Shown: positions 1 through 27,418, numbered from the stretch's first letter. The stretch: 32,000 nt of DNA from Buchnera aphidicola (Thelaxes suberi) (GCF_964059005.1 NZ_OZ060389.1:1-32000), one strand, 5' to 3'. Translations and numbers: made by a program. The notes: generated from the sequence alone by a model not told the origin.

Positions 1-258
1 ATTTTCACATATAAAAAATAAAATAATTCATTTCAACCAAATAATTTATTATTCAAGATAAGATAAATTTTTTGATAGCATTATGGTTTTGTTAAAATAA
101 AACGCTGAATAAAAAACTCACTTAATATAAGAATACTACATTAGTATATTTTAACATAATTTTTATTATATATTTTTTAATGATATTTAATTAAAAAAAT
201 AAAAAATTTTTATAAAAAATAAAATAAAAAATAAATTTTATATTATAAAGGTTATAAC

Positions 259-2601: not shown

Positions 2602-3435
<834 letters not shown>

Positions 3436-3479
3436 AAAATTATAACAAAAAACATAATAACTTAAAAAATTAGAGGTAA

Positions 3480-3722
<243 letters not shown>

Positions 3723-3761
3723 AAATTAAAAAAATATTAATAATATTCATACGATACGCGC

Positions 3762-3796
3762 TGCCCTTACAGTTAATATCAAAAAAAGTAAGGGCA
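3762..3796 (+). other. GC-containing hairpin in the atpE-atpF intergenic spacer (possible intra-operon attenuator or mRNA-stabilising stem)
   Basis: tgcccttac (3762-3770) pairs perfectly with gtaagggca (3788-3796). This gives 9 bp with 5 G:C pairs and a 17-nt A-rich loop. No U-tract follows immediately. Confidence 0.55.
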
Positions 3797-3842
3797 ATAA
3801 ATATTATTTATTTTAACATTAATAAAAAAGGATATACATTCT

Positions 3843-4313
3843 GTGAATTTAAATGCAACGCTAATTGGACAAACTATTTCATTTATTTTATTTGTATGGA
3901 TATGTATGAAATACATATGGCCTCCCATCATTTATATTATTAACAAAAGACAAAAAAAAATAATAGATTCTTTTGAATTAATAAAAAAAGAAAAATTAGA
4001 AATAGATATACAGAAAAAAAACATACAACAAGAAATAAAAAATGCAAAAAAAGAAGCTTTTTCTATTTTAAACAAAGCTAAAAAAAGAAAAGAACAATTA
4101 TTAAAATCCACTATTGAGCAAGCGGAAAAAGAACGAATAACAATATTAAAAGAAGCCAAATTATCAATTCAAGCAGAAAGAAAAAAAATGATCATAGAGT
4201 CAAACCAATATACTACTAAAATAGCCATACAAATTGCAGAAACAATATTAGAAAAAGCAATTAAAAAACATGGAAATAGTAATTTAATAAAAACATTAAT
4301 ATCAGATATATAA
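3843..4313 (+). CDS. atpF: F0F1 ATP synthase subunit b
   Basis: 156 aa with a GTG start, as in E. coli atpF. The N-terminus MNLNATLIGQTISFILFVWICMKYIWPP matches E. coli [28 protein letters not shown]. Confidence 0.94.
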   Translation: MNLNATLIGQTISFILFVWICMKYIWPPIIYIINKRQKKIIDSFELIKKEKLEIDIQKKNIQQEIKNAKKEAFSILNKAKKRKEQLLKSTIEQAEKERITILKEAKLSIQAERKKMIIESNQYTTKIAIQIAETILEKAIKKHGNSNLIKTLISDI

Positions 4314-4314
4314 T

Positions 4315-4869
4315 ATGAGAAAAATTATGTTATGTACATATCATAAAAATATTGCATACCCTTATGCTAAAGCAGCATATCAATTTTCTAAATCGAACAA
4401 TTGTATTCAAGAATGGAATAATATGTTTATTCTAGTTACAAAAACATTAAAAATACCAATATTTAATTCCTTATGTCATGGAATATTAGGAATAACTTAT
4501 CCTAAAACCATTTTTAATCAAATATTCGAAAAATACATAGATTGTTTTTTTAAAAATTTTATTTATATTATTATAGAAAATAAAAGATTATTTTTAATAG
4601 AATCTATTTTTTTTATTTTTAAAAATCTATGTGAAAAATTTAATAATATACAAAATATACAAATCATAGTTCCAAATAAATTATCTGAAATAGAATATAA
4701 AAATATTATTAGTCAATTAGAAAGAAAATTCTCTTCAAAAATTAATTTAACGCATAATGTTAATAAAAATATTATTGGAGGAATTATTATTAAAAAAGAA
4801 AAATTACAAATAGATAAAAGTATTAAAAATTATCTAAATCAAATTAAAAAATATTTAAAAACTAATTAA
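4315..4869 (+). CDS. atpH: F0F1 ATP synthase subunit delta
   Basis: Its operon position and the motif YPYAKAAYQFS match E. coli RPYAKAAFDFA. The start is ambiguous: ATG 4315 gives 184 aa and ATG 4327 gives 180 aa, against 177 aa in E. coli. Confidence 0.88.
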   Translation: MRKIMLCTYHKNIAYPYAKAAYQFSKSNNCIQEWNNMFILVTKTLKIPIFNSLCHGILGITYPKTIFNQIFEKYIDCFFKNFIYIIIENKRLFLIESIFFIFKNLCEKFNNIQNIQIIVPNKLSEIEYKNIISQLERKFSSKINLTHNVNKNIIGGIIIKKEKLQIDKSIKNYLNQIKKYLKTN

Positions 4870-4882
4870 ATAAGAGATAAAA

Positions 4883-6418
4883 ATGCAATTAAATTCAAAT
4901 GAAACTTTTGAAATAATAAAAAAAAGAATAAAAAATTTTAATTTTATTAATGAAAAAATTAATGAAGGAACTATAGTTTCAGTAAACGATGGAATCGTAA
5001 AAATTATCGGATTATCTGAAGTTATGCAAGGAGAAATGATCGAACTTACAGAAAATTTATATGGAATTGCATTAAATTTAGAAAAAAATATTGTTGGAGT
5101 AATAGTTTTAGGTCCTTTTGATCATTTAAAAGAAGGTATGCAAGTACGTTGTACAGGAAAAATATTAGAAATACCTGTAGGATTAAAATTTTTAGGTAGA
5201 ATTGTGAATAGTTTAGGTTGTCCAATTGACAACCAAGGAGAAATTAAAGAAGATCAGTATTCACCTGTAGAAACAGATGCGCCTGGAGTAATTGACCGTA
5301 TTTCAATTAGCGAACCTTTACAAACAGGATATAAGTGTATTGATTCAATGATTCCGATAGGAAAAGGGCAACGAGAATTAATTATTGGAGATAGACAAAC
5401 AGGAAAAACTACCTTAGCTATTGATACAATTATTAATCAAAAAAACACAGGAGTTAAATGTATATACGTTGCTATAGGTCAAAAAAATTCAACTATTATT
5501 AGTATAGTGCAAAAATTACGCCAAAATAAAGCTTTATCTAATACAATAATAGTCGTTGCATCCGCTTCAGAATCTGCTGCATTACAATATTTGTCCGCTT
5601 ATTCTGGATGTACTATGGGTGAATTTTTTAGAGATCGTGGAGAAGACGCGTTAATTGTATATGACGATCTTTCTAAACATGCAATTGCATATAGACAAAT
5701 TTCACTACTTCTAAAAAGACCACCAGGAAGGGAAGCATTTCCAGGAGATATATTTTACTTACATTCTAGATTATTAGAACGGTCTGCTAAAATCAACTGT
5801 TCTAGTATAAAAAAAAATAATAATATTAAAAAAAAAATAGGATCATTAACAGCATTACCAATTGTGGAAACACAAGCAGGAGATGTTTCATCTTTTGTAC
5901 CGACAAATATTATATCGATTACTGATGGACAGATATTTTTAGAGTCAAGCTTATTTAATTCTGGAATTCGACCTGCTATTAACCCTGGAATTTCTGTATC
6001 AAGAGTAGGAAGTGCAGCACAAACACAAATCATAAAAAAATTATCTGGGGGAATTCGTTCTGCACTAGCGCAATATAGAGAACTGGCTGCTTTTTCTCAA
6101 TTTTCATCTGATTTAGATATAATTACTAGAAAACAACTAGATTATGGAAAAAAACTCACTGAATTACTAAAACAAAAACAACATCAACCAATGAGTATTG
6201 CAGAACAAAGCATTATGTTGTTTGCAGCTTCAAAAGGATTTTTAGAAGATATAAAAGTAACTAATATTTTAATTTTTGAACAACAACTAATAGATTTTTT
6301 TAAATTAGAACATATTAATATTTTTAATATCATTAATTTAAATAAAATTTATAATGATGAAATAGAATCACAGTTTAACGAATTAATTACATATTTTAAA
6401 AAAAATGTTTTTATATAA
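4883..6418 (+). CDS. atpA: F0F1 ATP synthase subunit alpha
   Basis: 511 aa. It has the Walker A motif GDRQTGKT and long identities to E. coli AtpA, such as [34 protein letters not shown]. Confidence 0.97.
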
Positions 6419-6454
6419 AAAATTTTATAATAAAAAATAAAAATAAGATGAATT

Positions 6455-7330
6455 ATGCCTATCAATATTGAGATAAAAAACAAAATTCATAGCATTGAAA
6501 ATACTCAAAAAATTACAAAAGCTATGGAAATGATTTCTATTGCCAAAATGAAAAAAACTCAATGTAAAATGGAAATAAGTAGACCTTATGCTAATATTCT
6601 AAATAAAGTAATTTCACATGTATCACAAGGATATCTAGAATATAAACATCCTTTTTTATATACAGAAAAAAAAATAAAAAAAAATGGATATATTATACTA
6701 TCGACAGATAAAGGTTTATGTGGAAGTTTAAATACTAATTTATTTAAAAAAATATTAGACATGTTCATAATTGACGCTAAAAAAAATATTTTTACTGAAA
6801 TTATACTATTAGGATCAAAAGGATCAAATTTTTTTGAATCACTTGGATATAATATTCTAGATAAAACAATAAATATAGGAGAAAACCCATCATTTTCAAC
6901 AATAATAACATTTGCTCATCCGTTAATTCAAGCATATAAAAATCAAAAAATTCAAAAATTATATATCTGTTATAATCACTTTCATAATAGATTATCTCAA
7001 CATCCTATTATTAAACAACTGTTACCTTTTCCGAAAAAACAAACAAATAATTATAAAAAAAAAATATGGGATTATATATACGAGCCTAACGCAAAATATT
7101 TATTAAATCTTCTATTAAACAGATATCTAGAATTTCAAATATATCAAAGCGTGTTAGAAAATTTAGCTTCTGAACAAGCAGCTCGAATGGTAGCAATGAA
7201 TACTGCAAATAATAATAGTACATCTATGATTAAAGATTTGCAGTTAATATACAATAAATCACGTCAATCTAACATTACTCAAGAAATTACGGAAATTATT
7301 TCAGGATCAAATGCTTTATCCAAAGAATAA
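6455..7330 (+). CDS. atpG: F0F1 ATP synthase subunit gamma
   Basis: 291 aa. The motifs TQKITKAMEMISIAKM and ENLASEQAARMVAM match E. coli AtpG. Confidence 0.95.
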   Translation: MPINIEIKNKIHSIENTQKITKAMEMISIAKMKKTQCKMEISRPYANILNKVISHVSQGYLEYKHPFLYTEKKIKKNGYIILSTDKGLCGSLNTNLFKKILDMFIIDAKKNIFTEIILLGSKGSNFFESLGYNILDKTINIGENPSFSTIITFAHPLIQAYKNQKIQKLYICYNHFHNRLSQHPIIKQLLPFPKKQTNNYKKKIWDYIYEPNAKYLLNLLLNRYLEFQIYQSVLENLASEQAARMVAMNTANNNSTSMIKDLQLIYNKSRQSNITQEITEIISGSNALSKE

Positions 7331-7370
7331 AATAAAAAAATAATACAAAGTATAAATTTTTAAAAGGTGA

Positions 7371-8786
<1,416 letters not shown>

Positions 8787-8826
8787 TATTTTTCGTTATA
8801 AAATTTAATTATTTATAAGGTTTACC

Positions 8827-9243
8827 ATGGTGTTTCATTTAGATGTTGTTAGCGCTGAACTTCAAATTTTTTCAGATCAAGTACAAAAAATACGTATACA
8901 TGGTGTAGAAGGAGAATTAACAATTTATCCTAAACATACACAATTATTAACATCGGTAAAACCAGGAGTATTATATATAAAAAATAAATCTGGTAAAAAA
9001 AAATATATGTATTTGTCTGGAGGAATACTAGAAGTACAACCTGAAATAGTAACTATATTGGCTGATACTGTTATCAATAGTAAAGATCTGAATCGTTATA
9101 AAGCTATATCGCAAAAAAATCAAGCAATAGCTTATATAAAAAATTGCGATTTACATGATAAAAATAGATCTAAAATGATAAAAAAATTATCTAAAGCGTT
9201 AGCTAAAATTAAAACTATAGAAATGATGAAATGTTCTTCATAA
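8827..9243 (+). CDS. atpC: F0F1 ATP synthase subunit epsilon
   Basis: 138 aa. The motifs HLDVVSAE and [20 protein letters not shown] match E. coli AtpC. Confidence 0.94.
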
Positions 9244-9275
9244 ATAAAAAAATATTTTAATTTGTTTTCAGGGTT

Positions 9276-9307
9276 CGGCAGGTTAGATATATCATTAAAA
9301 CCTGCCG
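9276..9307. terminator. GC-rich hairpin between convergent atpC and gyrB (candidate bidirectional terminator)
   Basis: cggcaggtt (9276-9284) pairs with aacctgccg (9299-9307). This gives 9 bp with 6 G:C pairs in an otherwise AT-only spacer. There is no clean U-tract on either strand. Confidence 0.55.
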
Positions 9308-9344
9308 TATAATTAAGATAAATCATATAAATTTTTTATGTTTA

Positions 9345-11768
<2,424 letters not shown>

Positions 11769-11915
11769 TTATTAATAAAAGTTCAAAATACCTAAATTGA
11801 ATAAATGTATATTAATAGAATAAAAAAATAATTAATATTTTATCAATAAATTTAATTAATATTTATTATATTTATTTAATTTTAATTATAAATATTATAA
11901 ATATTTAAATGTCAT

Positions 11916-13019
11916 TTATAACAATAAAGGCATAACTACAAAAATATTATTTGATTGTTGATCTTCTTGAATATGAACGGAACAAACTGGTATATTAAAT
12001 GAAAAAAAAACGTATTCTTCTGTCATATTATTTAATATGTCAATAATATAATTAACATTCATATTAAATGCTATCTCTTCTTTTATAATATTAATATTAA
12101 TTATTTCTTTTGCCTTCTCTTCTTCTTCATTATTAGATCGTAACTCTAATTGATCTTTACAAAAACAAAATTTTACACTTTGAAATTTTTTATCAGATAG
12201 AATAGACACTCTTAATAATGCATTTTTTAATTGTAATGTAGGAATTTTGATTTTTATTTTAGGATATTGTAATAAAACATTATTATATTCTGGATAGTTT
12301 CCTTCAATTAATTTTGAAATAAAAACGGTATTATGTATTTTTATTCTAATATTATTTTTATTTAAAAATAATATTAATTTAATATCTCGATTATTTAGTA
12401 ACTTAATAAGTTCTAATACTCCTTTTCGAGAAATAATAACAGAATAAAAATTATACCTATTGTCTAAATGTACAGAAGAAACTGCTAATCGATGACCGTC
12501 AGTAGCTACCATTTTTAACTGATTTTCGTTAATTTCAAATAATATTCCATTTAAATAATAACGTACATCATTAATAGCCATAGCAAATTGTGTATTATGA
12601 ATCATGTTTTTAATAATAGATTGTGAAACAACAAACGTCATTTCATGATTAAACGATTTTAATAACGGAAATGAAGTCTCAGATACAATTAATAATTCAA
12701 AAACACTGTTATTAGATTTGATTAACATTTTTTTTTCATTAACATATACTTTAATAACAGAATTATTAGGAATACTTTTACAAATACTTAATAATTTTCT
12801 ACCAGAAACTATGGTAGACTTATTAATATCTTGAGAAATAATAGTAGTATAAACAGTAATTTGAGTTTCTAAATTAGTACTTGTTACTGTCATAATATTA
12901 CCGTTAACATTGATTAAAACATTTTCAAGAATAGCAATATTATGATTTTTTAATAATAAAATAGAAACTTTCTGTAAAGCTTTTAAAAAATTTTTTTGTT
13001 CTACAATAAATTTAATCAT
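11916..13019 (-). CDS. dnaN: DNA polymerase III beta sliding clamp
   Basis: 367 aa, against 366 in E. coli, and collinear with it (for example VATDGHRLA and the MPLLL C-terminus). recF, which separates dnaN and gyrB in E. coli, is absent; the spacer is 162 bp. Confidence 0.95.
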   Translation of the reverse strand: MIKFIVEQKNFLKALQKVSILLLKNHNIAILENVLINVNGNIMTVTSTNLETQITVYTTIISQDINKSTIVSGRKLLSICKSIPNNSVIKVYVNEKKMLIKSNNSVFELLIVSETSFPLLKSFNHEMTFVVSQSIIKNMIHNTQFAMAINDVRYYLNGILFEINENQLKMVATDGHRLAVSSVHLDNRYNFYSVIISRKGVLELIKLLNNRDIKLILFLNKNNIRIKIHNTVFISKLIEGNYPEYNNVLLQYPKIKIKIPTLQLKNALLRVSILSDKKFQSVKFCFCKDQLELRSNNEEEEKAKEIININIIKEEIAFNMNVNYIIDILNNMTEEYVFFSFNIPVCSVHIQEDQQSNNIFVVMPLLL

Positions 13020-14416
13020 ATTTTTTTTTAAGAAGATAAAATAATTTTTAAAATAAAAAGTCTTCTATATATCCAGTTATTTTCTTTTAACAGTAAATTT
13101 ATTTTATAAGATTATAAAAATTTTTAAATCAGATCTATGATATAGCATTAACGATTTAAAAATAACAAAATTTAAATATTTTATTTTAAAAATATCTATT
13201 TAATAAATTATAAAGTAATTAATTTTTAATTTTTCAGTAAGTAATAAAATAAGTACATTAAATAGAGTTTTTTCAAAATTGAATATATTATATATATTTC
13301 AACTTAATAAGTTTATTTATATTATAATTTAAAATTATAACAATTCTTTTGTTGCAACATAAATTAATAAAAAAAATTATATTTAATATGAAATTATTTG
13401 CATATATTTCTATAAATATAGATATACTAATTATATTATAAAATAATAATTCCATATGAAATTAAAATTTATAACTTATATATGTTAAAATTTTTATCTA
13501 TACATATTATATGTATCATAATTTAAAAAAATATATATAATTATTTATAAAAAATTTTATTTTTTTTTAAAAAAAATAATATATATTCGTAATAATAAAA
13601 AACAAAACCATGATTGTTATTAATATCGTTAAAATAAATTAATTTATACATGATGAATTAATTAATAGTAATTATTATAAATATAATTACTAATAAAATT
13701 AAGTATTTATACAAGAATTTATAATTTATTATATTTATTTTAAAATATTTTGTTTTGTGATTAATAATTAAAATTATTTTTAACTTTACATTTTATAATA
13801 CATTTTAATCATAAATTAATTATTTTGAATATATTAATAATAAAATTATTAATATATTAATACATTTTTATAAATTGTAATTTTATGAATAAAATGTTTA
13901 GTTTCGTATTTTATAAATAAAATAATCTAAATTCTTGTTTTGATTAAAAGTTAAAAAATAAAGTAATAAAAAAATTATTTTTTTCTCAACAAAGAATAAA
14001 ATAATAATTTAATCAGCACATACAAAATTTAATAATATATTAAATATATACTAAAAAAGCTTTTTATTTATAATAAAAAATGAATTATTTCATTAATGAA
14101 TTATATATAATTAATATTTTATTAAAATTTATAAAAATTTTTTGTAATAAATAAATAAGTATTTAATAAAATTATTCTATAAATATAAAAATATAGTTTA
14201 TATAATTTTGAGATAATATATTATAAATTCTAATTCAAAATTATATTAATAAAAAATAAATAATTAAAAAATTTAATTTCAAACAAATTTATTTAATAAT
14301 AATTAATTTTATTTTTTTTATATAAATTAAAAAATATTTCTGTATAACCAAATATAAAATTAATTTAAAATACTATTATTAAATGTAAAACAATATTCAT
14401 AACGGATAACTTTAGT
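13020..14416 (-). pseudogene. dnaA: Fully eroded dnaA locus (synteny-defined), with a possible fossil of the DnaA C-terminus at 13028-13111
   Basis: 1,397 bp with no ORF of 60 aa or more on either strand, and about 130 G+C by hand count (roughly 9-10% GC). It occupies the position of dnaA, upstream of dnaN and divergent from rpmH. A 27-codon minus-strand frame ends at TAA 13028-13030, 8 nt before the dnaN ATG. It reads ...LKENNWIYRRLFILKIILSS*, compared with the E. coli DnaA end ...[21 protein letters not shown]. Confidence 0.5.
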
Positions 14417-14560
14417 ATGAAACGTACCTTTCAACCATCTTTATTAAAACGCAATCGTTTACATGGATTTCGATCTCGAATGTCAGATAAAAACGGAAAA
14501 CACATTTTATCTAGACGTAGAGCTAAATTACGTAGTAAGTTAACTGTTTCTTCTAACTAA
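14417..14560 (+). CDS. rpmH: 50S ribosomal protein L34
   Basis: Not in the ORF track because it is only 47 aa. Hand translation gives [47 protein letters not shown], matching the L34 consensus (E. coli [39 protein letters not shown]...). Confidence 0.95.
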
Positions 14561-14580
14561 TAAATTTAACTACATAGAGT

Positions 14581-14949
14581 ATGAATATTATATTTTCATA
14601 TCCTCGGGAGTTGCGCCTGTTAACTCCCATTCAATTTAAAAAAGTTTTTAAAAAATCATATAAAGTTACTAATAAAGAATTAATTATTCTCGGAAAACCA
14701 AATTCTTTACTATTCCCTCGTTTAGGAATTAGTATTTCTAAAAAAAAAATTAAATATGCAACCATACGAAATAAAGTAAAACGATTAATTAAAGAATCAT
14801 TTAGAATTTTACAACATAATTTAATGCATATGGATTTTATAGTGATTATAAAACAATTTTCTATTTTTTTAAAAAATAATATTTTTTTTAATAAAATAAA
14901 TAAATTATGGAATAGATACTCTTTAATTAATTTAATACATAAAAAATAA
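14581..14949 (+). CDS. rnpA: RNase P protein component
   Basis: 122 aa immediately after rpmH. The motif FSYPRELRLLTPIQFKKVF matches E. coli LAFPRELRLLTPSQFTFVF, and RNKVKRLIKESFR is conserved. Confidence 0.93.
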   Translation: MNIIFSYPRELRLLTPIQFKKVFKKSYKVTNKELIILGKPNSLLFPRLGISISKKKIKYATIRNKVKRLIKESFRILQHNLMHMDFIVIIKQFSIFLKNNIFFNKINKLWNRYSLINLIHKK

Positions 14950-15058
14950 ATCTTTAAAAATACAACTAATAAAAAAAATTATAAATTTCATTTATTAATA
15001 AATAGAAAATATAAAATTATAAAAATAATTAAAACAGATAAATGTGAGAATATAAATA

Positions 15059-16669
15059 ATGAATCTGTTACGCAATTTTATTCTTGTTTCTTCTTTCGTT
15101 GCTTTAATAATCTCCTGCGCTGTTTGGAAAAAAAATATTGAAGCAAATCATAGTTCAATAAAAATTGAAAATTTTAATCATGATGATTCGTTAATAACAA
15201 CGAAAATAAACCCATTATCATTTATAACAATAAAAAACGATGTAATCAAATTAACAATTGATAAAAAAGGAGGAGATATTGTACAAACAGAATTATTAAA
15301 ATTTAAAGATACGCTAAATTCTAAAAACGATTTAAAATTATTAGAAACATCTCATAATTTTATATATCAAGCGCAAAATGATATAATAAAATCAAAATAT
15401 TTAGGTCATGAATTTCAAAAAAATTACCGATTAAATTATCAAACTAAAAAAAATGATTTTATCTTAACAAATCAAAATTCTATAATAGAAGTACCTCTAT
15501 TATCTATTTCTAAATCTGGTATTAAATATATTAAAACTTTTGTTTTAAAAAAAAATAGTTACGCTGTCGATGTAAAATTTAAAGTTATAAATAATACTAA
15601 TCAATCCATTGATATGATTATGTTTAATCGTTTAATACAAAGCATTGTCCAACCAAAAAGTAAACAACATGAGAATAATAATATTGCCTTACAAATTTTT
15701 AGAGGGGTTGCATACTCTACTGATAATAATAAATATAGTAAGTATAAATTTACAGATATACAAAATAAAGCAAATTTAAAAATATCGACAAAAAATGGAT
15801 GGATTGCAATGTTACAAAAATACTTTGTATCTGCATGGATTCCAAAAAATACATCCTATAAAAACCATATATTCACCAATTATTTAGAAAAAAATATTGC
15901 AGCTATAGGATATAAAACAGATATTATTCATATACCAGCAAAAAATGTTACTAATTTAATATCAACATTATGGGTTGGTCCAGAAATTCAAGATAAAATG
16001 GCTGCAGTTGCTCCCCATTTAGATTTAACAATAAACTATGGATGGTTATGGTTTCTATCACAACCTCTATTTAAATTACTTAAAATATTAAATAATTTTT
16101 TTCATAATTGGGGATTTTCTATTATTGCCATCACTTTTATCATGAAATTATGTATGTATCCAATTAGTAAAGCTCAATATATTGCAATATCTAAAATAAA
16201 AAAAATACAACCTTTAGTAGAAAATATTAAAAAAAAATTCGCTCATGATAAACAAAAACTAACTGAAGAAATGATCATTTTATACAAAAAAGAAGGAGTT
16301 AATCCTTTAGGAAGTCTCTTTCCAGCATTAATTCAAATGCCTCTTTTTTTAGCACTATATTATATGTTAATGAGTTCAGTAGAATTAAGACATGCCCCTT
16401 TTATCCTATGGATTCAAGATTTATCAGATAAAGATCCATACTATGTATTACCTATTTGTATGGGTATTACTATGTTTTTTATTCAAAAAAATAATACACT
16501 TAATGATCAAAACAAATCATCTATACAAGACATCATACTGCAACTAACGCCTTTTATTTTTACTATATTTTTTCTATGGTTTCCATCAGGATTAGTTTTA
16601 TACTATACAGTTAGTAATTTAATCACAATATTTCAAAATAAAATAATGTTTAAAAATATAAAAGTTTAA
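15059..16669 (+). CDS. yidC: Membrane protein insertase YidC
   Basis: 536 aa with an N-terminal TM segment, a large periplasmic domain and a conserved C-terminal core (GWLWFLSQPLF, GVNPLGS, PSGLVLYY). It keeps the rpmH-rnpA-yidC-mnmE synteny. Confidence 0.94.
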   Translation: MNLLRNFILVSSFVALIISCAVWKKNIEANHSSIKIENFNHDDSLITTKINPLSFITIKNDVIKLTIDKKGGDIVQTELLKFKDTLNSKNDLKLLETSHNFIYQAQNDIIKSKYLGHEFQKNYRLNYQTKKNDFILTNQNSIIEVPLLSISKSGIKYIKTFVLKKNSYAVDVKFKVINNTNQSIDMIMFNRLIQSIVQPKSKQHENNNIALQIFRGVAYSTDNNKYSKYKFTDIQNKANLKISTKNGWIAMLQKYFVSAWIPKNTSYKNHIFTNYLEKNIAAIGYKTDIIHIPAKNVTNLISTLWVGPEIQDKMAAVAPHLDLTINYGWLWFLSQPLFKLLKILNNFFHNWGFSIIAITFIMKLCMYPISKAQYIAISKIKKIQPLVENIKKKFAHDKQKLTEEMIILYKKEGVNPLGSLFPALIQMPLFLALYYMLMSSVELRHAPFILWIQDLSDKDPYYVLPICMGITMFFIQKNNTLNDQNKSSIQDIILQLTPFIFTIFFLWFPSGLVLYYTVSNLITIFQNKIMFKNIKV

Positions 16670-16719
16670 AATCTATTAATTTTTAATCAAAGAAATTATT
16701 CATAACGAGACTAATTATT

Positions 16720-18078
16720 GTGTATGATATGCAAACTATTGTTGCTCAGTCTACATCTCCTGGAAAATCAGGAATAGGTATATTAAGAATTTCAGGAAAA
16801 AAAACAATTGAAGTTGCTCAATTAATATTAAAATGTTTACCATCCCCTCGTGTAGCAACATATTCTAATTTTTTTGACGTAAAAGGTAATATTCTAGATA
16901 CGGGGATAGCTATTTTATTCCCAAAACCTAATTCCTTTACAGGAGAAGACGTATTAGAATTACAAGGGCATGGAAATGATTTAATTATTGACTTATTAAT
17001 AAAAAATATTTTAACAATTAAACATATACGATTGGCAAAACCTGGGGAATTTACACAACGCGCTGTCTTAAATAATAAAATAGATTTAACACAAGCAGAA
17101 GGAATCGCTGATTTAATCAATGCTGAATCAGTAAGTTCAATTCAACTATCACTAAAAATAATGCAAGGAGATTTTTCTAAACACATTAAAAATGTAATAA
17201 AAAATATATCTGATATCAATGTTTTATTAGAAACTGAATTAAACTTTTCTGAAGAGGAAGGTTTAATGCTCAATCTTAATGTCATTGAAAATACATTAAA
17301 TACAACATTAAAATTTTTATTAAAAATTAAAAATAGTGATAAAGAAGGAATAATTTTAAAAGAAGGGGCTAAAATAGTTATCTGCGGACCTCCTAATTCT
17401 GGAAAATCCACTATACTAAATATGTTATCAAAAGATAACACATCTATTGTAACCAACATAGCAGGTACAACAAGAGATTTAATCCATCAAAAAATTCAAA
17501 TTAAAGGATTGTCATTCATTGTTACTGATACAGCTGGATTAAGAAAAAGTGATAATATAATTGAAAAAATCGGAATAAAAAAAACAAAAAAAATGATTCA
17601 TTTGGCTGACCATGTACTATTCGTTATAGACTTAAAAAAATATAAAATAAATAAAGAATATTATAAAAAAATAGAAAATGAATTACTGCAAGATAAATCA
17701 TATTGTATTATTTTTAATAAAATAGATTTATTATCATTAACTCCTATAATTAAAAAAAATAAAAATACAACACATATTTATATTTCTGCGAAAAATAATA
17801 TTGGATTAAAATTATTAACAAATTATTTATTTCATAAATATAAAAAAAATAATTCTAAAGAAAGTATTTTTACAACTAGGAGAAGACATTTAATTATAAT
17901 TAATCAAGTATTTATAGAATTATCACAATCATTAACAAATTGGAAAAAAAATCATAATTTAGAATTGCTGTCAGAAAGTTTAAGAATTGCTATTAATTTA
18001 CTACAAGAAATTATTCATTGTGATTCGTCAGAAACAGTATTAAAAAAAATTTTTTCTGAATTTTGTATCGGAAAATAA
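16720..18078 (+). CDS. mnmE: tRNA modification GTPase MnmE (TrmE/ThdF)
   Basis: 452 aa with TIVAQSTSPGKSGIGILRISG at the N-terminus, G1 motif GPPNSGKST, DTAG, and the C-terminal FCIGK motif. The start is either GTG 16720 or ATG 16729. Confidence 0.94.
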   Translation: MYDMQTIVAQSTSPGKSGIGILRISGKKTIEVAQLILKCLPSPRVATYSNFFDVKGNILDTGIAILFPKPNSFTGEDVLELQGHGNDLIIDLLIKNILTIKHIRLAKPGEFTQRAVLNNKIDLTQAEGIADLINAESVSSIQLSLKIMQGDFSKHIKNVIKNISDINVLLETELNFSEEEGLMLNLNVIENTLNTTLKFLLKIKNSDKEGIILKEGAKIVICGPPNSGKSTILNMLSKDNTSIVTNIAGTTRDLIHQKIQIKGLSFIVTDTAGLRKSDNIIEKIGIKKTKKMIHLADHVLFVIDLKKYKINKEYYKKIENELLQDKSYCIIFNKIDLLSLTPIIKKNKNTTHIYISAKNNIGLKLLTNYLFHKYKKNNSKESIFTTRRRHLIIINQVFIELSQSLTNWKKNHNLELLSESLRIAINLLQEIIHCDSSETVLKKIFSEFCIGK

Positions 18079-18166
18079 AATGTATATGAACATATACACT
18101 GTTATGTAATACATAAAATAAAATTTTATATTTAAATAATATTTAATGTTGTGAATTAATAAAAAT

Positions 18167-18239
18167 TGCCCGAAGGCGGAATTGAACCACCGACACGGGG
18201 ATTTTCAGTCCCCTGCTCTACCGACTGAGCTATTCGGGC
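18167..18239 (-). tRNA. tRNA-Phe (anticodon GAA)
   Basis: The 73-nt reverse complement is GCCCGAATAGCTCAGTCGGTAGAGCAGGGGACTGAAAATCCCCGTGTCGGTGGTTCAATTCCGCCTTCGGGCA. It folds as a cloverleaf by hand: 7-bp acceptor stem, GCTC/GAGC D stem, GGGGA/TCCCC anticodon stem, loop CTGAAAA, and a T-loop TTCAATT. It is very close to E. coli tRNA-Phe. CCA is not encoded. Confidence 0.95.
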
Positions 18240-18252
18240 ATCGATTCTGAGT

Positions 18253-18281
18253 AATATATATTAATTAATCGATTTCGTCAA
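18253..18281 (-). promoter_or_regulatory. Near-consensus sigma-70 promoter for tRNA-Phe
   Basis: The minus strand reads TTGACG (18281-18276), a 17-nt spacer, then TATATT (18258-18253). The -10 element ends 13 nt upstream of the mature tRNA 5' end. This implies a short leader removed by RNase P. Confidence 0.5.
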
Positions 18282-18348
18282 ATTTTATTTAAAATAAATA
18301 ATTTTAAAGTTTTTGTTAAAAATAAATTTTTAAATTTAAATATTATTA

Positions 18349-18379
18349 CCCTTGAAAGTCTCTAATTTAATCCATATAT
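18349..18379 (+). promoter_or_regulatory. Sigma-32 (heat-shock) type promoter of groESL
   Basis: CCCTTGAAA (18349-18357), 14 nt, then CCATATAT (18372-18379). Compare the E. coli sigma-32 consensus CCCTTGAA-N13-15-CCCCATNT and the E. coli groE promoter. It lies about 70 bp upstream of the groES ATG. Confidence 0.7.
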
Positions 18380-18446
18380 ATATATTTAAATACTTATTAT
18401 AATATAATGATCGATTGGACTGATTAAAACAAAAGGAGATCTTAAA

Positions 18447-18740
18447 ATGAACATTCGTCCATTGCACGATCGTATTATCGTTAAACGCAACGAAGTTGAA
18501 TTAAAATCAGCAGGTGGAATAGTATTAACTGGATCAGCTGCAGGTAAATCAACACGCGGAACCGTTATTGCAATAGGAAATGGTAGAGTTTTAGAAAATG
18601 GTAAAATCAAACCATTAGATGTTAAAGTTGGTGATGTTGTTATTTTTAATGAAAGTTACGGTGCTAAAACTGAAAAAATTGATAATGAAGAAGTTTTAAT
18701 TTTAACAGAAGGTGACATTTTAGCAATTGTTGAAAAATAA
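18447..18740 (+). CDS. groES: Co-chaperonin GroES
   Basis: 97 aa. [14 protein letters not shown] matches E. coli [15 protein letters not shown] strong SD, AAGGAG, lies 8 nt upstream. Confidence 0.98.
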
Positions 18741-18762
18741 ATTTAATCCGTTATTTAATTAA

Positions 18763-20433
<1,671 letters not shown>

Positions 20434-20538
20434 TTAATTTATGCATTTTTATTAAAAAATACATAAATTACATTCAAAAAGCACATTTTATAACAGTTAA
20501 TATTTAAAATCTTTTAATTAATTTAAATAAATATTTTT

Positions 20539-20573
20539 AACTTTTCACCTTGGATATAAAGGTGAAAAGTTTT
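20539..20573 (+). terminator. Rho-independent-type terminator after groEL
   Basis: aacttttcacctt (20539-20551) pairs perfectly with aaggtgaaaagtt (20559-20571). This gives a 13-bp stem and a 7-nt loop. The stem's terminal TT plus the next TT make a short T run. Confidence 0.7.
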
Positions 20574-20608
20574 AAATAAATTTAAATTTTATTTAATAAG
20601 TAAAAATT

Positions 20609-21181
20609 ATGATTATATTACATAGTAATAACATAAAAAAAGGAAGCAAAATTATTTTTTTAAATGAACCTTATTCTATAGAACATAGTGAGTTTGTTAA
20701 ACCAGGAAAAGGACAAGCGTTTATTAGGGTAAAATTACGTAATTTAATATCAGGAAAGTTATTAGATAAAACATTTAAAGCTACAGATTATTTTAATGCT
20801 GCAAATGTGCATACAACTTCAGTTATTTACATATATAAAGATCAAAACAATTATTTTTTTATGGACAAACAATCATTTGAACAATTTTCAATAAATCAAC
20901 ATACATTAAGAAATAATTATAAATGGATTGTAGAACAAAACGAATATTCAGCTAACATATGGAATAATAAAATTATCTCCATTTCTATAAACAATTTTGT
21001 TATATTAAAAGTAATTAATATAACAAACGCTATTAAAGGAAATTCAATTAATCCGGGAAACAAAATGGCTACATTATCCACAGGAGCTGTAGTAAAAATA
21101 CCTTTATTCATTAAAATAGGAGATTTGATCAAAATAGATACTCGATCTGAAGAATATGTCAGTCGAATAAAAATAAACTAA
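20609..21181 (+). CDS. efp: Translation elongation factor P
   Basis: 190 aa. SEFVKPGKGQAFIRVKLRNL contains the conserved modified Lys of the KPGKGQAF loop. TLSTGAVVKIPLFI and DTRSEEYVSRIK are conserved. Confidence 0.95.
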   Translation: MIILHSNNIKKGSKIIFLNEPYSIEHSEFVKPGKGQAFIRVKLRNLISGKLLDKTFKATDYFNAANVHTTSVIYIYKDQNNYFFMDKQSFEQFSINQHTLRNNYKWIVEQNEYSANIWNNKIISISINNFVILKVINITNAIKGNSINPGNKMATLSTGAVVKIPLFIKIGDLIKIDTRSEEYVSRIKIN

Positions 21182-21211
21182 CAATTTATTATTTATTTTA
21201 GCATTTTATTC

Positions 21212-21940
21212 CTATTTTACATATTGACGATAACTATCCCATTCAAATGTCAACCATAAACTATTTCCTAATCTCATACGATCAATAACACGTTCTCCTA
21301 ACAATAACCGCATTCCCTCATGATCCAAATTCGATAGCATTCCAGTAGAACGTTTAGAAGAAGATCTTCTATCAACTATTTGATTAATAATAACTTTTTC
21401 ATAACGTGATTCTGTTTGCATTCCTATTTCATCGATCATTAATAAGTCTACTGTACTTAAGTTATGTAATAAATTTTCTTCGGTAATAATACTCGAATCG
21501 CTAAAAGTTCCTTTCATATTAGACATTAAATCTGCAACAGTTACAATTAATACAGTTTTACCATTAAGTATTAAATGATTTCCGATTGCTGAAGCAAGAT
21601 GATTTTTACCAGTTCCAGGTTTTCCTGAAAAAATAAAACTTGCTATATTACCATTAAATTCTTCTGCATAACGTCGAGCTGCAGATACGACTTTTTTATG
21701 ACCTTTGTGTTCTATTTTATAGTTATCAAATGAACAATCAATATACAATTCGCGAATTCCTGATCTTCCTAAAATCTTCTGTATTTTTATAGATTGATTG
21801 TGTTTTAATATAGCTTTAGAAGCTAATCTTCCCTGTTCCTGATTCCAGGATATCAAATCATGTTCAGTATTAAATTTTGGTTTGACATGAGTTGGTATTA
21901 ATCGCTGTAATCTTTTTAAAAAACTGCTATGATTATCCAT
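21212..21940 (-). CDS. dnaC: Helicase loader DnaC
   Basis: 242 aa, against 245 in E. coli. IASFIFSGKPGTGKNHLA (Walker A), YEKVIINQIVDRRSSSKR and MRLGNSLW are almost identical to E. coli DnaC. Confidence 0.95.
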   Translation of the reverse strand: MDNHSSFLKRLQRLIPTHVKPKFNTEHDLISWNQEQGRLASKAILKHNQSIKIQKILGRSGIRELYIDCSFDNYKIEHKGHKKVVSAARRYAEEFNGNIASFIFSGKPGTGKNHLASAIGNHLILNGKTVLIVTVADLMSNMKGTFSDSSIITEENLLHNLSTVDLLMIDEIGMQTESRYEKVIINQIVDRRSSSKRSTGMLSNLDHEGMRLLLGERVIDRMRLGNSLWLTFEWDSYRQYVK

Positions 21941-21943
21941 ATT

Positions 21944-22504
21944 TTATTTATCTCTAAAACCTATTGGTATTTTTTTATCTGGAACTGGTAATGCATTAAT
22001 ATCTCTTTTACAACAATGATGTTTATTTTTTATAAACCTGATACGTTCTAAACTACGCGCAAATTTTTGTTGCCATTGCATATGATGAAATAATCTTCCT
22101 TCTGCTTTCCAATATGAAATAAATGATAATAATTCTTCATTTTTTGGTGCGCTTGTTAATTTTATACCCCATATAAGTGCTTGATGTAAAAAATTATTAT
22201 CTGGCTTCCAGTCATCATAGATAAGAAATTTACCTTGAGGTGTATAATTACAACTATTACTTTTTCCTTTAATATCTATTTTTGTTAAATACTTATTCAA
22301 TAAAATTGATCGATCATAATCAATATTTTTTTTATGTACATAAAATAATTTTTTCATAATTCTAGGAGTAACAACATACATTACTGGAACGTTTTCATTA
22401 AAAACAGCAAGAATTTCGTTTTTTGCACCATATAATGATTTTATAGGATTCTTAGAAAAAACTTTTAATGTTGTAAAAAAAGAGGTAAACGTACTATATG
22501 TCAT
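21944..22504 (-). CDS. dnaT: Primosomal protein DnaT
   Basis: 186 aa, against 179 in E. coli. The motifs DDWKPDNNF, SFISYWKAEGRLFHHMQWQQKFARSL and IPIGFR match E. coli DnaT ([32 protein letters not shown]). Its stop is 3 nt from the dnaC ATG, the dnaTC operon layout seen in E. coli. Confidence 0.9.
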   Translation of the reverse strand: MTYSTFTSFFTTLKVFSKNPIKSLYGAKNEILAVFNENVPVMYVVTPRIMKKLFYVHKKNIDYDRSILLNKYLTKIDIKGKSNSCNYTPQGKFLIYDDWKPDNNFLHQALIWGIKLTSAPKNEELLSFISYWKAEGRLFHHMQWQQKFARSLERIRFIKNKHHCCKRDINALPVPDKKIPIGFRDK

Positions 22505-25472: not shown

Positions 25473-25994
25473 TAAAAAAATTTAAAATATATCAGTTTTG
25501 ATTTTAATGTAATTAAATTACAAATGAAATTTGTATTTCAATAATAAATATAATTCAATTAAAAATTAATTTTTAATTCTTATTAACTTAATAATTAATT
25601 ATAATTTATTTTTATCAATTATTTTGTAAAAATTTGTTAAAAATATTTCTATTTTTAATAAATTTATTGTTAATGGAATAAATTTCTAATTATTAAAATA
25701 ATATTAACTACTATATACAAAATACTATTAATAAGTAAAATTTTTATCTTAAACAATTGTATTAAAATAATAATAACTACATTTATTAATAATATATTCA
25801 TCAACAAAATATTAAAAAATACTTAATATTCATATTAAAATATGAATTATTTAATTTTAATAATATTAAATGGAATAATCAAAAAATTAACATAAAATTT
25901 TTTATTATAAATAAATCTTTTATTAAAGAGTTTTTGAAACGTATTACTTTAGTTAATAAATAAATTTATTGCAAATAAAAAGGTTTAATAAAAA

Positions 25995-26813: not shown

Positions 26814-27418
26814 ATAACAATTAAAACTATAAAGTTAAAAATAAATCAATTTACATATTGTTCATTAAAAATATCTAATCTATATGTATTAATTTTATTA
26901 TTTTATAATAAATAGTTAATAATTTTTATTGTAATTTTAATTAATATTAAAAATATTATAATTTTAAAAATGTTAATTTTTTATTTTTCCTTTTTATTTA
27001 TTAATTACATCAAATTATATTTACGGTATAGAATACAAAAAGTTATCAATTTATATTGATACATATAAACTAAAACTGAAATTTTTATCTGCATAATTTA
27101 TTATATCTATAATATACACTAAATTTTAAATATGTTGCATAATTATAATTAACGCATGATTATACATATATAAAATATATTAAATATATACTTCATTTAA
27201 TTTTTGAATTAATAAATTGATAAAAAATAAATGTATATTTACATATATAATTATAAAATTATTTACAATAAATAATTGTATAAAATTCAATATTTATATA
27301 TAAATTAAAAATGATTTAAATCATATATTTTTTCATACTATCAGAAATACAAAAATTTAATCAGTATAACACATAGTTCATTTTTATTTTGTATATAAAA
27401 TATTTTGGAGATGTTAGA

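Follow-up and report, generated by a model that had tools for sequence, protein, structure and literature searches.

Erosion of dnaA in its ancestral slot between dnaN and rpmH in Buchnera aphidicola of Thelaxes suberi points to lineage-specific loss of the replication initiator

Free-living bacteria almost universally possess the replication initiator DnaA and cannot do without it. Loss of dnaA is established in the insect symbionts Wigglesworthia, Baumannia, Carsonella, Sulcia and Blattabacterium (PMC4389277, PMC1472245). Within Blochmannia the gene is intact in B. turneri, a pseudogene in B. obliquus and absent from the Camponotus symbionts (Williams and Wernegreen 2015, PMC4389277), the tally being one lineage that keeps dnaA, one with a pseudogene and four without it (PMC4389277). 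Buchnera was long cited as keeping dnaA despite extreme reduction, and still so in 2015 (PMC4389277); loss has since been described in the Buchnera of Cerataphidini, namely of Ceratovacuna japonica, C. nekoashi and Pseudoregma panicola (bioRxiv 10.1101/2025.07.09.664008). Here, a stretch of 32,000 nt from Buchnera aphidicola of Thelaxes suberi (NZ_OZ060389.1:1-32000; hereafter the window) was analyzed with respect to the interval between dnaN and rpmH at 13020-14416 (hereafter the slot). The slot is very probably the ghost of a dnaA gene lost on the T. suberi branch, with chromosome replication initiated independently of DnaA, likely through PriA, DnaT and DnaC. The genome (strain 3717, 530 kb, 472 coding sequences (CDS), 23.33% G+C) was reported by Manzano-Marin et al. 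(bioRxiv 10.1101/2022.08.28.505559), in whose main text and two supplements dnaA is not mentioned. A prediction made earlier from this stretch (hereafter the original prediction) had proposed the loss and noted that dnaA is missing from some insect endosymbionts, which agrees with the published cases of Wigglesworthia, Blochmannia and Baumannia and, in addition, of the Cerataphidini Buchnera.

The slot is bounded downstream by dnaN, which encodes the beta sliding clamp on the minus strand (11916-13019, intact, 367 aa), and upstream by the open reading frame (ORF) of rpmH, for ribosomal protein L34, on the plus strand (14417-14560). The DnaN of the window is 100% identical to the sliding clamp of T. 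suberi Buchnera, which has three DNA_pol3_beta Pfam domains, and the rpmH orthologues of related Buchnera bear the Pfam domain Ribosomal_L34. The slot comprises 1,397 bp (A656, T609, C69, G63) with a G+C content (GC) of 9.45%, compared with 23.5% for the window overall, and no other spacer in the window comes near it in length, the runner-up being 575 bp long. Neutral reference values were 11.6% GC for the other spacers of the window, pooled, and 10.3% at four-fold degenerate sites, and the slot is at their level (9.4%). It contains no ORF of 60 aa or more; the longest from a start codon has 55 aa and the longest stop-free run 57 codons, which is ordinary for the dinucleotide-shuffled slot (mean 53.9; 57 reached by 35% of 500 shuffles). 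Stop codons number 43-58 per frame, so that the reading frame is destroyed. The gene starts at 13019 and 14417, the absence of ORFs of at least 60 aa over 1,397 bp and even the hand count of 63 G and 69 C in the original prediction were all reproduced here, and its impression of long-term neutral decay is in keeping with the composition of the other spacers and the four-fold sites. Pfam searches with the ten longest slot peptides returned nothing, including no Bac_DnaA or Bac_DnaA_C. No tRNA genes were found in the slot, and its sole Rfam match, CRISPR-repeat, is chance-level (28.9 bits against a gathering score of 42). The search of the slot for meaningful repeats or a repeat family yielded short low-complexity AT arrays only, and tandem arrays make up a minority of its length.

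After the T. suberi symbiont itself, the best DnaN matches were those of the Buchnera of Thelaxes californica (63% identity) and Kurisakia onigurumii (56%). Both genomes have the same gene order, rpmH <> dnaA-dnaN-gyrB, in which the exact slot is occupied by an intact dnaA (457 and 455 aa, respectively), and both proteins carry the domains DnaA_N, Bac_DnaA and Bac_DnaA_C. The spacer had been taken for the dnaA position from conserved synteny, and the intact genes of the two closest relatives establish that positional orthology. The rpmH-dnaN interval measures 1,741 and 1,771 bp in T. californica and Kurisakia and 1,397 bp in T. suberi, and the relatives' dnaA genes have 23% GC versus 9.4% for the T. 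suberi slot. Amino-acid identity over ten flanking genes was 72.4% between T. suberi and T. californica, 67.1% between T. suberi and Kurisakia, and 66.0% between T. californica and Kurisakia. Because identity is highest between the two Thelaxes Buchnera, these are sisters, which places the loss of dnaA on the T. suberi branch, later than its divergence from that of T. californica. Since T. suberi is no farther from the outgroup than T. californica is, these T. suberi genes show no acceleration in rate.

The clearest remnant of the gene is its former 3' end at 13028-13111 on the minus strand, which consists of 27 stop-free codons followed by TAA (13028-13030). The frame reads SYKINLLLKENNWIYRRLFILKIILSS*, has an in-frame stop directly upstream and lacks an ATG, GTG or TTG start. 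The gap from the old dnaA stop to the dnaN ATG (13020-13027, minus strand, AAAAAAAT) is 8 nt long, and 9-12 nt in the relatives. In ungapped, stop-anchored comparisons with DnaA C-termini, the relic was identical at 11 of 27 positions to T. californica and at 12 of 27 to Kurisakia, with BLOSUM62 scores of 35 and 33 against a null mean of about -22 (standard deviation about 12). The observed score was reached by none of 20,000 random stop-free AT-rich 27-mers of spacer composition and by none of 122 real spacer windows; the functional tails of T. californica and Kurisakia DnaA are themselves identical to each other at 12 of 27 positions (hand count). The last 84 nt have 64% DNA identity to T. 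californica and 61% to Kurisakia, chance being 36%, and ungapped identity beyond them falls to chance (35%). The same segment was also the top unanchored local DNA alignment with both relatives. The original prediction had found this 27-codon frame and placed its TAA correctly, 8 nt before the dnaN ATG, and had called its resemblance to the DnaA C-terminus weak, a description that is apt for the comparison with Escherichia coli and does not apply to the close relatives, against which the match is strong.

Upstream of this segment lies a fading relic of DnaA domain IV (13112-13255, minus strand; the region encoding ...EIGxAFGxRDHTTV...), which is broken by insertions, deletions and stops. In gapped anchored alignments, the block 84-156 nt from the old stop gave p ~0.001 with Kurisakia and 0.07-0.11 with T. 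californica, the block 156-228 nt was marginal (p 0.006-0.016, Kurisakia only), and no similarity was detected beyond ~228 nt. Weaker similarity to dnaA may extend to ~150-230 nt from the old stop. Alignment with the dnaA genes of the closest Buchnera, a check put forward together with the original prediction, has brought out residual similarity at the 3' end and a frame disrupted upstream of it.

The remaining ~1.15 kb (13256-14416, hereafter the body) is AT-rich and shows no detectable homology either to dnaA or to the intergenic region between rpmH and dnaA in the relatives; a GGAT Shine-Dalgarno-like motif within the last ~20 nt beside rpmH is shared with the relatives. When the body was compared with dnaA by tblastn, by frameshift-tolerant protein-DNA alignment, by a 20-aa diagonal scan and by composition-aware local and global DNA alignments, all results were at or below those of shuffled controls. 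The proposal that dnaA was inactivated and eroded is upheld by the orthologous slot, the relic, the destroyed frame and the neutral GC, and for the body the evidence of descent from dnaA consists of its position and length. Four-fold sites are nearly saturated between T. suberi and T. californica (identity 0.504, expected at saturation 0.419); DNA that has long been neutral is therefore expected to have changed beyond recognition, which is true of the body, and the 64% identity of the tail implies constraint.

A somewhat different history, unlikely in our view though the one to be taken most seriously, is that the loss is real but came about by deletion of most of the gene, so that the 3' ~150-230 nt stayed behind and the remainder of the spacer derives from AT-rich slippage or expansion. 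Such a course would suit the sharp contrast between a body without homology and a tail of 64% identity, the many short tandem arrays in the spacer, and the shrinkage of the slot to 203-460 bp in other lineages (see below). However, given an old loss, the near-saturation of neutral sites is already enough to make the body unrecognisable, the slot is still near its ancestral length (80%), the tandem arrays are a minority of the spacer, and Buchnera genomes are known to retain long gene-free remnants. The functional conclusion is the same in either case.

Under the preferred reading of decay in place, dnaA was inactivated in the T. suberi lineage after the split from T. californica, and its sequence drifted to the neutral base composition of the genome, leaving ~80% of the original slot length, of which only ~90 nt beside dnaN are still clearly recognisable and up to ~230 nt faintly so. 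That the spacer was instead kept through a gained function, as a DNA-unwinding or origin region or as a long regulatory region shared by dnaN and rpmH, appears quite improbable. Although 1.4 kb at 9.4% GC would melt easily, adjoins replication genes and has expression signals at its ends (the SD-like, i.e. Shine-Dalgarno-like, motif before rpmH and the conserved tail before dnaN), its composition is that expected of neutral DNA, it is devoid of conserved structure, of repeats and of DnaA boxes, other Buchnera without dnaA make do with slots of 203-460 bp, and the four-fold strand skews resemble those of the dnaA-bearing sister.

The spacer could also be misread if the AT-rich 1.4 kb were a stretch of low complexity that had been collapsed or wrongly joined during assembly, with dnaA present here in the real genome. 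The source study does note low complexity and post-assembly editing at the replication start in some Buchnera assemblies (bioRxiv 10.1101/2022.08.28.505559). Nevertheless, an assembly artefact is extremely improbable, because the spacer ends beside dnaN in a dnaA 3' end that is degraded yet in exactly the right position, which an artefact would not create; it is continuous with correct flanks on both sides and is not a simple repeat, and four other, independently assembled Buchnera genomes likewise lack dnaA in the slot.

Absence of dnaA from the whole T. suberi Buchnera genome is very likely. Within the 32-kb window, the only DnaA-like sequence found by tblastn was the paralogue dnaC. The T. 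californica DnaA was used as a database query, and its best 120 matches, all of at least 572 bits, were listed; they include the DnaAs of T. californica, Kurisakia and ~40 other Buchnera, and T. suberi DnaA is not among them. The sister T. californica scored 1005 bits and other Buchnera ~600 bits, and T. suberi proteins are present in the searched database, since DnaN and AtpB were matched. No Buchnera plasmid was among the best dnaA matches listed from PLSDB. The gene might still have been relocated, an intact copy residing elsewhere on the chromosome or on a plasmid and the slot being the abandoned old copy: the search covered the window and the best 120 matches rather than the whole chromosome, and Thelaxes Buchnera have an extra lineage-specific plasmid. 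Given the missing T. suberi entry among those 120 matches, the PLSDB result and a local gene order that is identical in the three Thelaxinae genomes, relocation is nonetheless highly improbable. It would moreover be unprecedented, as Buchnera lacks recA and mobile elements and we know of no gene duplication or transposition in it.

Two database matches were considered and set aside. The second-best DnaA match (P0122; L085 3961-5982, on the 6.8-kb contig JARCCX010063278.1) had been suspected of being a Buchnera dnaA that was relocated or lay on a plasmid, and was rejected. The protein is an E. coli-like DnaA of 673 aa in which segments are duplicated internally, from an assembly that looks non-bacterial, and it looks like contamination combined with mis-assembly, unrelated to Buchnera. 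The second-best AtpB match (P0242) was rejected as a closer relative, being from a free-living enterobacterium.

The tail has likely persisted because it carries the promoter and leader of dnaN and was for that reason kept under selection. In E. coli, the dnaN promoters lie within dnaA, and a dnaN promoter and leader would be the simplest explanation for a tail that was kept. The hexamer TAAAAT at 13101-13106 also occurs in T. californica; the corresponding bases of Kurisakia are AAAAAT.

If DnaA is missing, helicase loading must use another route. The helicase loader gene dnaC (21212-21940, minus strand) is intact, with Pfam matches to IstB_IS21 and the Bac_DnaA ATPase, and its product is 86% identical to T. 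californica DnaC. Next to it, dnaT (21944-22504, minus strand), for the primosomal protein of PriA-dependent restart, is likewise intact, with the Pfam DnaT DNA-binding domain and 53% identity to its T. californica counterpart. The 86% identity of DnaC between the two Thelaxes Buchnera compares with a ten-gene average of 72%, 63% for dnaN and 74% for gyrB, and by this measure the helicase loader is under unusually strong constraint in the clade. In all, dnaN, gyrB, dnaC and dnaT are intact in the window, and dnaB, dnaG, priA and the DNA polymerase III core lie outside it. As the dnaA-bearing relatives have dnaC and dnaT too, these genes would permit a DnaA-independent route but are not diagnostic of one. 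The likeliest route of initiation would start at R-loops, at D-loops or in AT-rich DNA that melts readily; there DnaC would load the helicase DnaB by way of the PriA/DnaT primosome, in a cell that is highly polyploid and where replication would be permissive or paced by the host. In E. coli, the PriA-dependent primosome can sustain replication that begins at R-loops and D-loops independently of the origin, and host control of replication is an idea of Gil et al., as summarised in a later paper (PMC4389277).

DnaA boxes are not enriched in the window (7 found, 10.4 expected), and none is in the slot. The box TTWTNCACA is absent from the 258 bp upstream of mnmG in T. suberi and likewise from the 428-bp spacer upstream of mnmG in its dnaA-bearing sister. 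Box decay was therefore rejected as a test of loss, the sister being equally without boxes there. Isolated box-like sequences occur away from any origin, with counts at chance level: a perfect box, TTATCCACA, inside T. suberi efp (21074-21082, plus strand); a near-box, ATTTTCACA, that forms the first bases of the window (1-9); a perfect box between groES and mnmE in T. californica (L001 4254, minus strand); and, in the dnaA-less Stegophylla strain, an 8/9 match, TGTGGATAC, ~75 nt upstream of dnaN (L089 ~20253-20262, minus strand). Four-fold strand skews are alike in the two Thelaxes Buchnera (TA skew -0.10 and -0.13), which weakly suggests that replication polarity through the region is unchanged. 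At four-fold sites of the window plus strand, A exceeds T and C exceeds G for both gene orientations, as was seen in all three Thelaxinae Buchnera (window 2620-22504 and the orthologous segments of L001 and L003); an origin just upstream of mnmG and a leading strand rich in G and T would predict the opposite.

The gene order of the window is mnmG, atpBEFHAGDC, gyrB (minus), dnaN (minus), the spacer, rpmH, rnpA, yidC, mnmE, tRNA-Phe, groES, groEL, efp, dnaC (minus), dnaT (minus), rsmD (minus), ftsY, rpoH, a HAD hydrolase gene, metE and purH (minus). Further ORF-free, AT-rich spacers of 8-11% GC are found at 2146-2619 (474 bp), 25473-25994 (522 bp) and 26814-27388 (575 bp). The first of these is situated between mnmG and atpB, where the locus of a free-living enterobacterium (L086) has rsmG and atpI, and is probably another gene ghost.

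Besides T. suberi and the Cerataphidini symbionts, dnaA has left the slot in several Buchnera lineages. Empty slots were found in the Buchnera of Stegophylla sp. (L089 19072-20782; 460 bp), Mollitrichosiphum nigrofasciatum (L091 11347-12907; 319 bp), Therioaphis trifolii (L092 11279-12726; 203 bp) and Takecallis arundicolens (L093 11186-12723; 290 bp). In these four, whose genomes are ~410-435 kb in size, dnaN and rpmH are adjacent and divergent and the slot has 4-11% GC; no tblastn match to DnaA and no C-terminal relic was detected in the four loci (13-21 kb each). No paper linking dnaA to these four aphid groups was found in a search that did not take in Chong et al. 2019 (Molecular Biology and Evolution). 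In the Buchnera of Hormaphis cornu (CP051840.1, L090 19780-20810), dnaA is recovered as two tblastn segments in different frames (19780-20274 and 20313-20810); der, mnmE and mnmG are also fragmented and the gene order is unlike that of other Buchnera, so the split could reflect real pseudogenisation or assembly errors.

Several points weigh against the account given here of the loss, the tail and the initiation route. The body, having no detectable homology, could be replacement or expansion DNA instead of decayed dnaA, and the DnaA survey extends to the best 120 matches (at least 572 bits), so that a very divergent or unannotated copy elsewhere is conceivable. Promoter-like matches in the region are no commoner than in shuffled sequence, a scan that is uninformative in DNA of 9% GC, and the DnaA tail is absent from the four other dnaA-less Buchnera slots, so that such a tail is not universally needed for dnaN expression; for both reasons the dnaN promoter is offered as an inference for this lineage. 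With regard to initiation, priA, rnhA and recBCD lie outside the window, and Wu et al. (PMC1472245) held that priA and recA pathways cannot explain other dnaA-less symbionts and suggested a role for recBCD.

The chances seem about even that DnaA has been repeatedly dispensable in Buchnera, with losses in Cerataphidini, Calaphidinae/Phyllaphidinae, Greenideinae and, most recently, T. suberi. If so, Buchnera as a whole would already have possessed a DnaA-independent start of replication, either PriA/DnaT/DnaC-based or host-paced. Thelaxes is not among the aphid lineages reported with a co-obligate partner in the study that is the source of the genome, and the T. suberi symbiont has more CDS (472) than its dnaA-bearing sister T. 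californica (455). Loss in a mid-sized Buchnera argues that neither extreme shrinkage nor a companion symbiont is required to lose the initiator. If the loss is as described, T. suberi and T. californica would constitute a natural knockout and wild type, in which origin usage could be read from sequencing depth; as the sister still has the gene, origin usage, copy-number control and strand asymmetry can be compared cleanly between a Buchnera with DnaA and one without.

Among described systems, the T. suberi case resembles that of Blochmannia in being a lineage-specific loss within one gamma-proteobacterial clade of insect symbionts, with a pseudogene stage in the ancestral slot and intact relatives, and in that DnaA-box searches are uninformative in both. 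It differs in host and symbiont genus and in the stage of decay, as the T. suberi gene is recognisable only over its last 90-230 nt, later in decay than a BLASTX-detectable pseudogene. With the Cerataphidini Buchnera it shares the symbiont species complex and the gene concerned. Those genomes, however, are strongly reduced, with 201 genes lost relative to the strain of Acyrthosiphon pisum, and co-obligate companions may compensate (bioRxiv 10.1101/2025.07.09.664008); the T. suberi Buchnera, in contrast, is mid-sized (530 kb, 472 CDS) in a host genus without a reported co-obligate partner. Unlike the four short slots of 203-460 bp, that of T. suberi still holds 1.4 kb of ghost sequence and so represents a stage that is less advanced or under different constraints. 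Like Wigglesworthia and Baumannia (Wu et al. 2006, PMC1472245), the T. suberi Buchnera is an obligate insect symbiont that very probably replicates without DnaA. Those two keep recA, whereas Buchnera is stated to lack it (PMC1472245), and RecA-dependent stable DNA replication is for that reason no option in Buchnera. Constitutive stable DNA replication (cSDR) in rnhA or topA mutants of E. coli, which proceeds without DnaA and oriC from R-loops or D-loops, may serve as a working analogy, and Synechocystis, which is polyploid as Buchnera is, tolerates depletion of DnaA; cSDR was described in laboratory mutants and cyanobacteria are a distant phylum, so these would be parallels and not groups to which the present case belongs. 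The loss of dnaA in T. suberi Buchnera is thus not a new kind of event and adds a well-placed case to a known phenomenon, distinguished by a 1.4-kb ghost with a conserved 3' tail, in a mid-sized genome without a reported second symbiont and with a sister that has dnaA.

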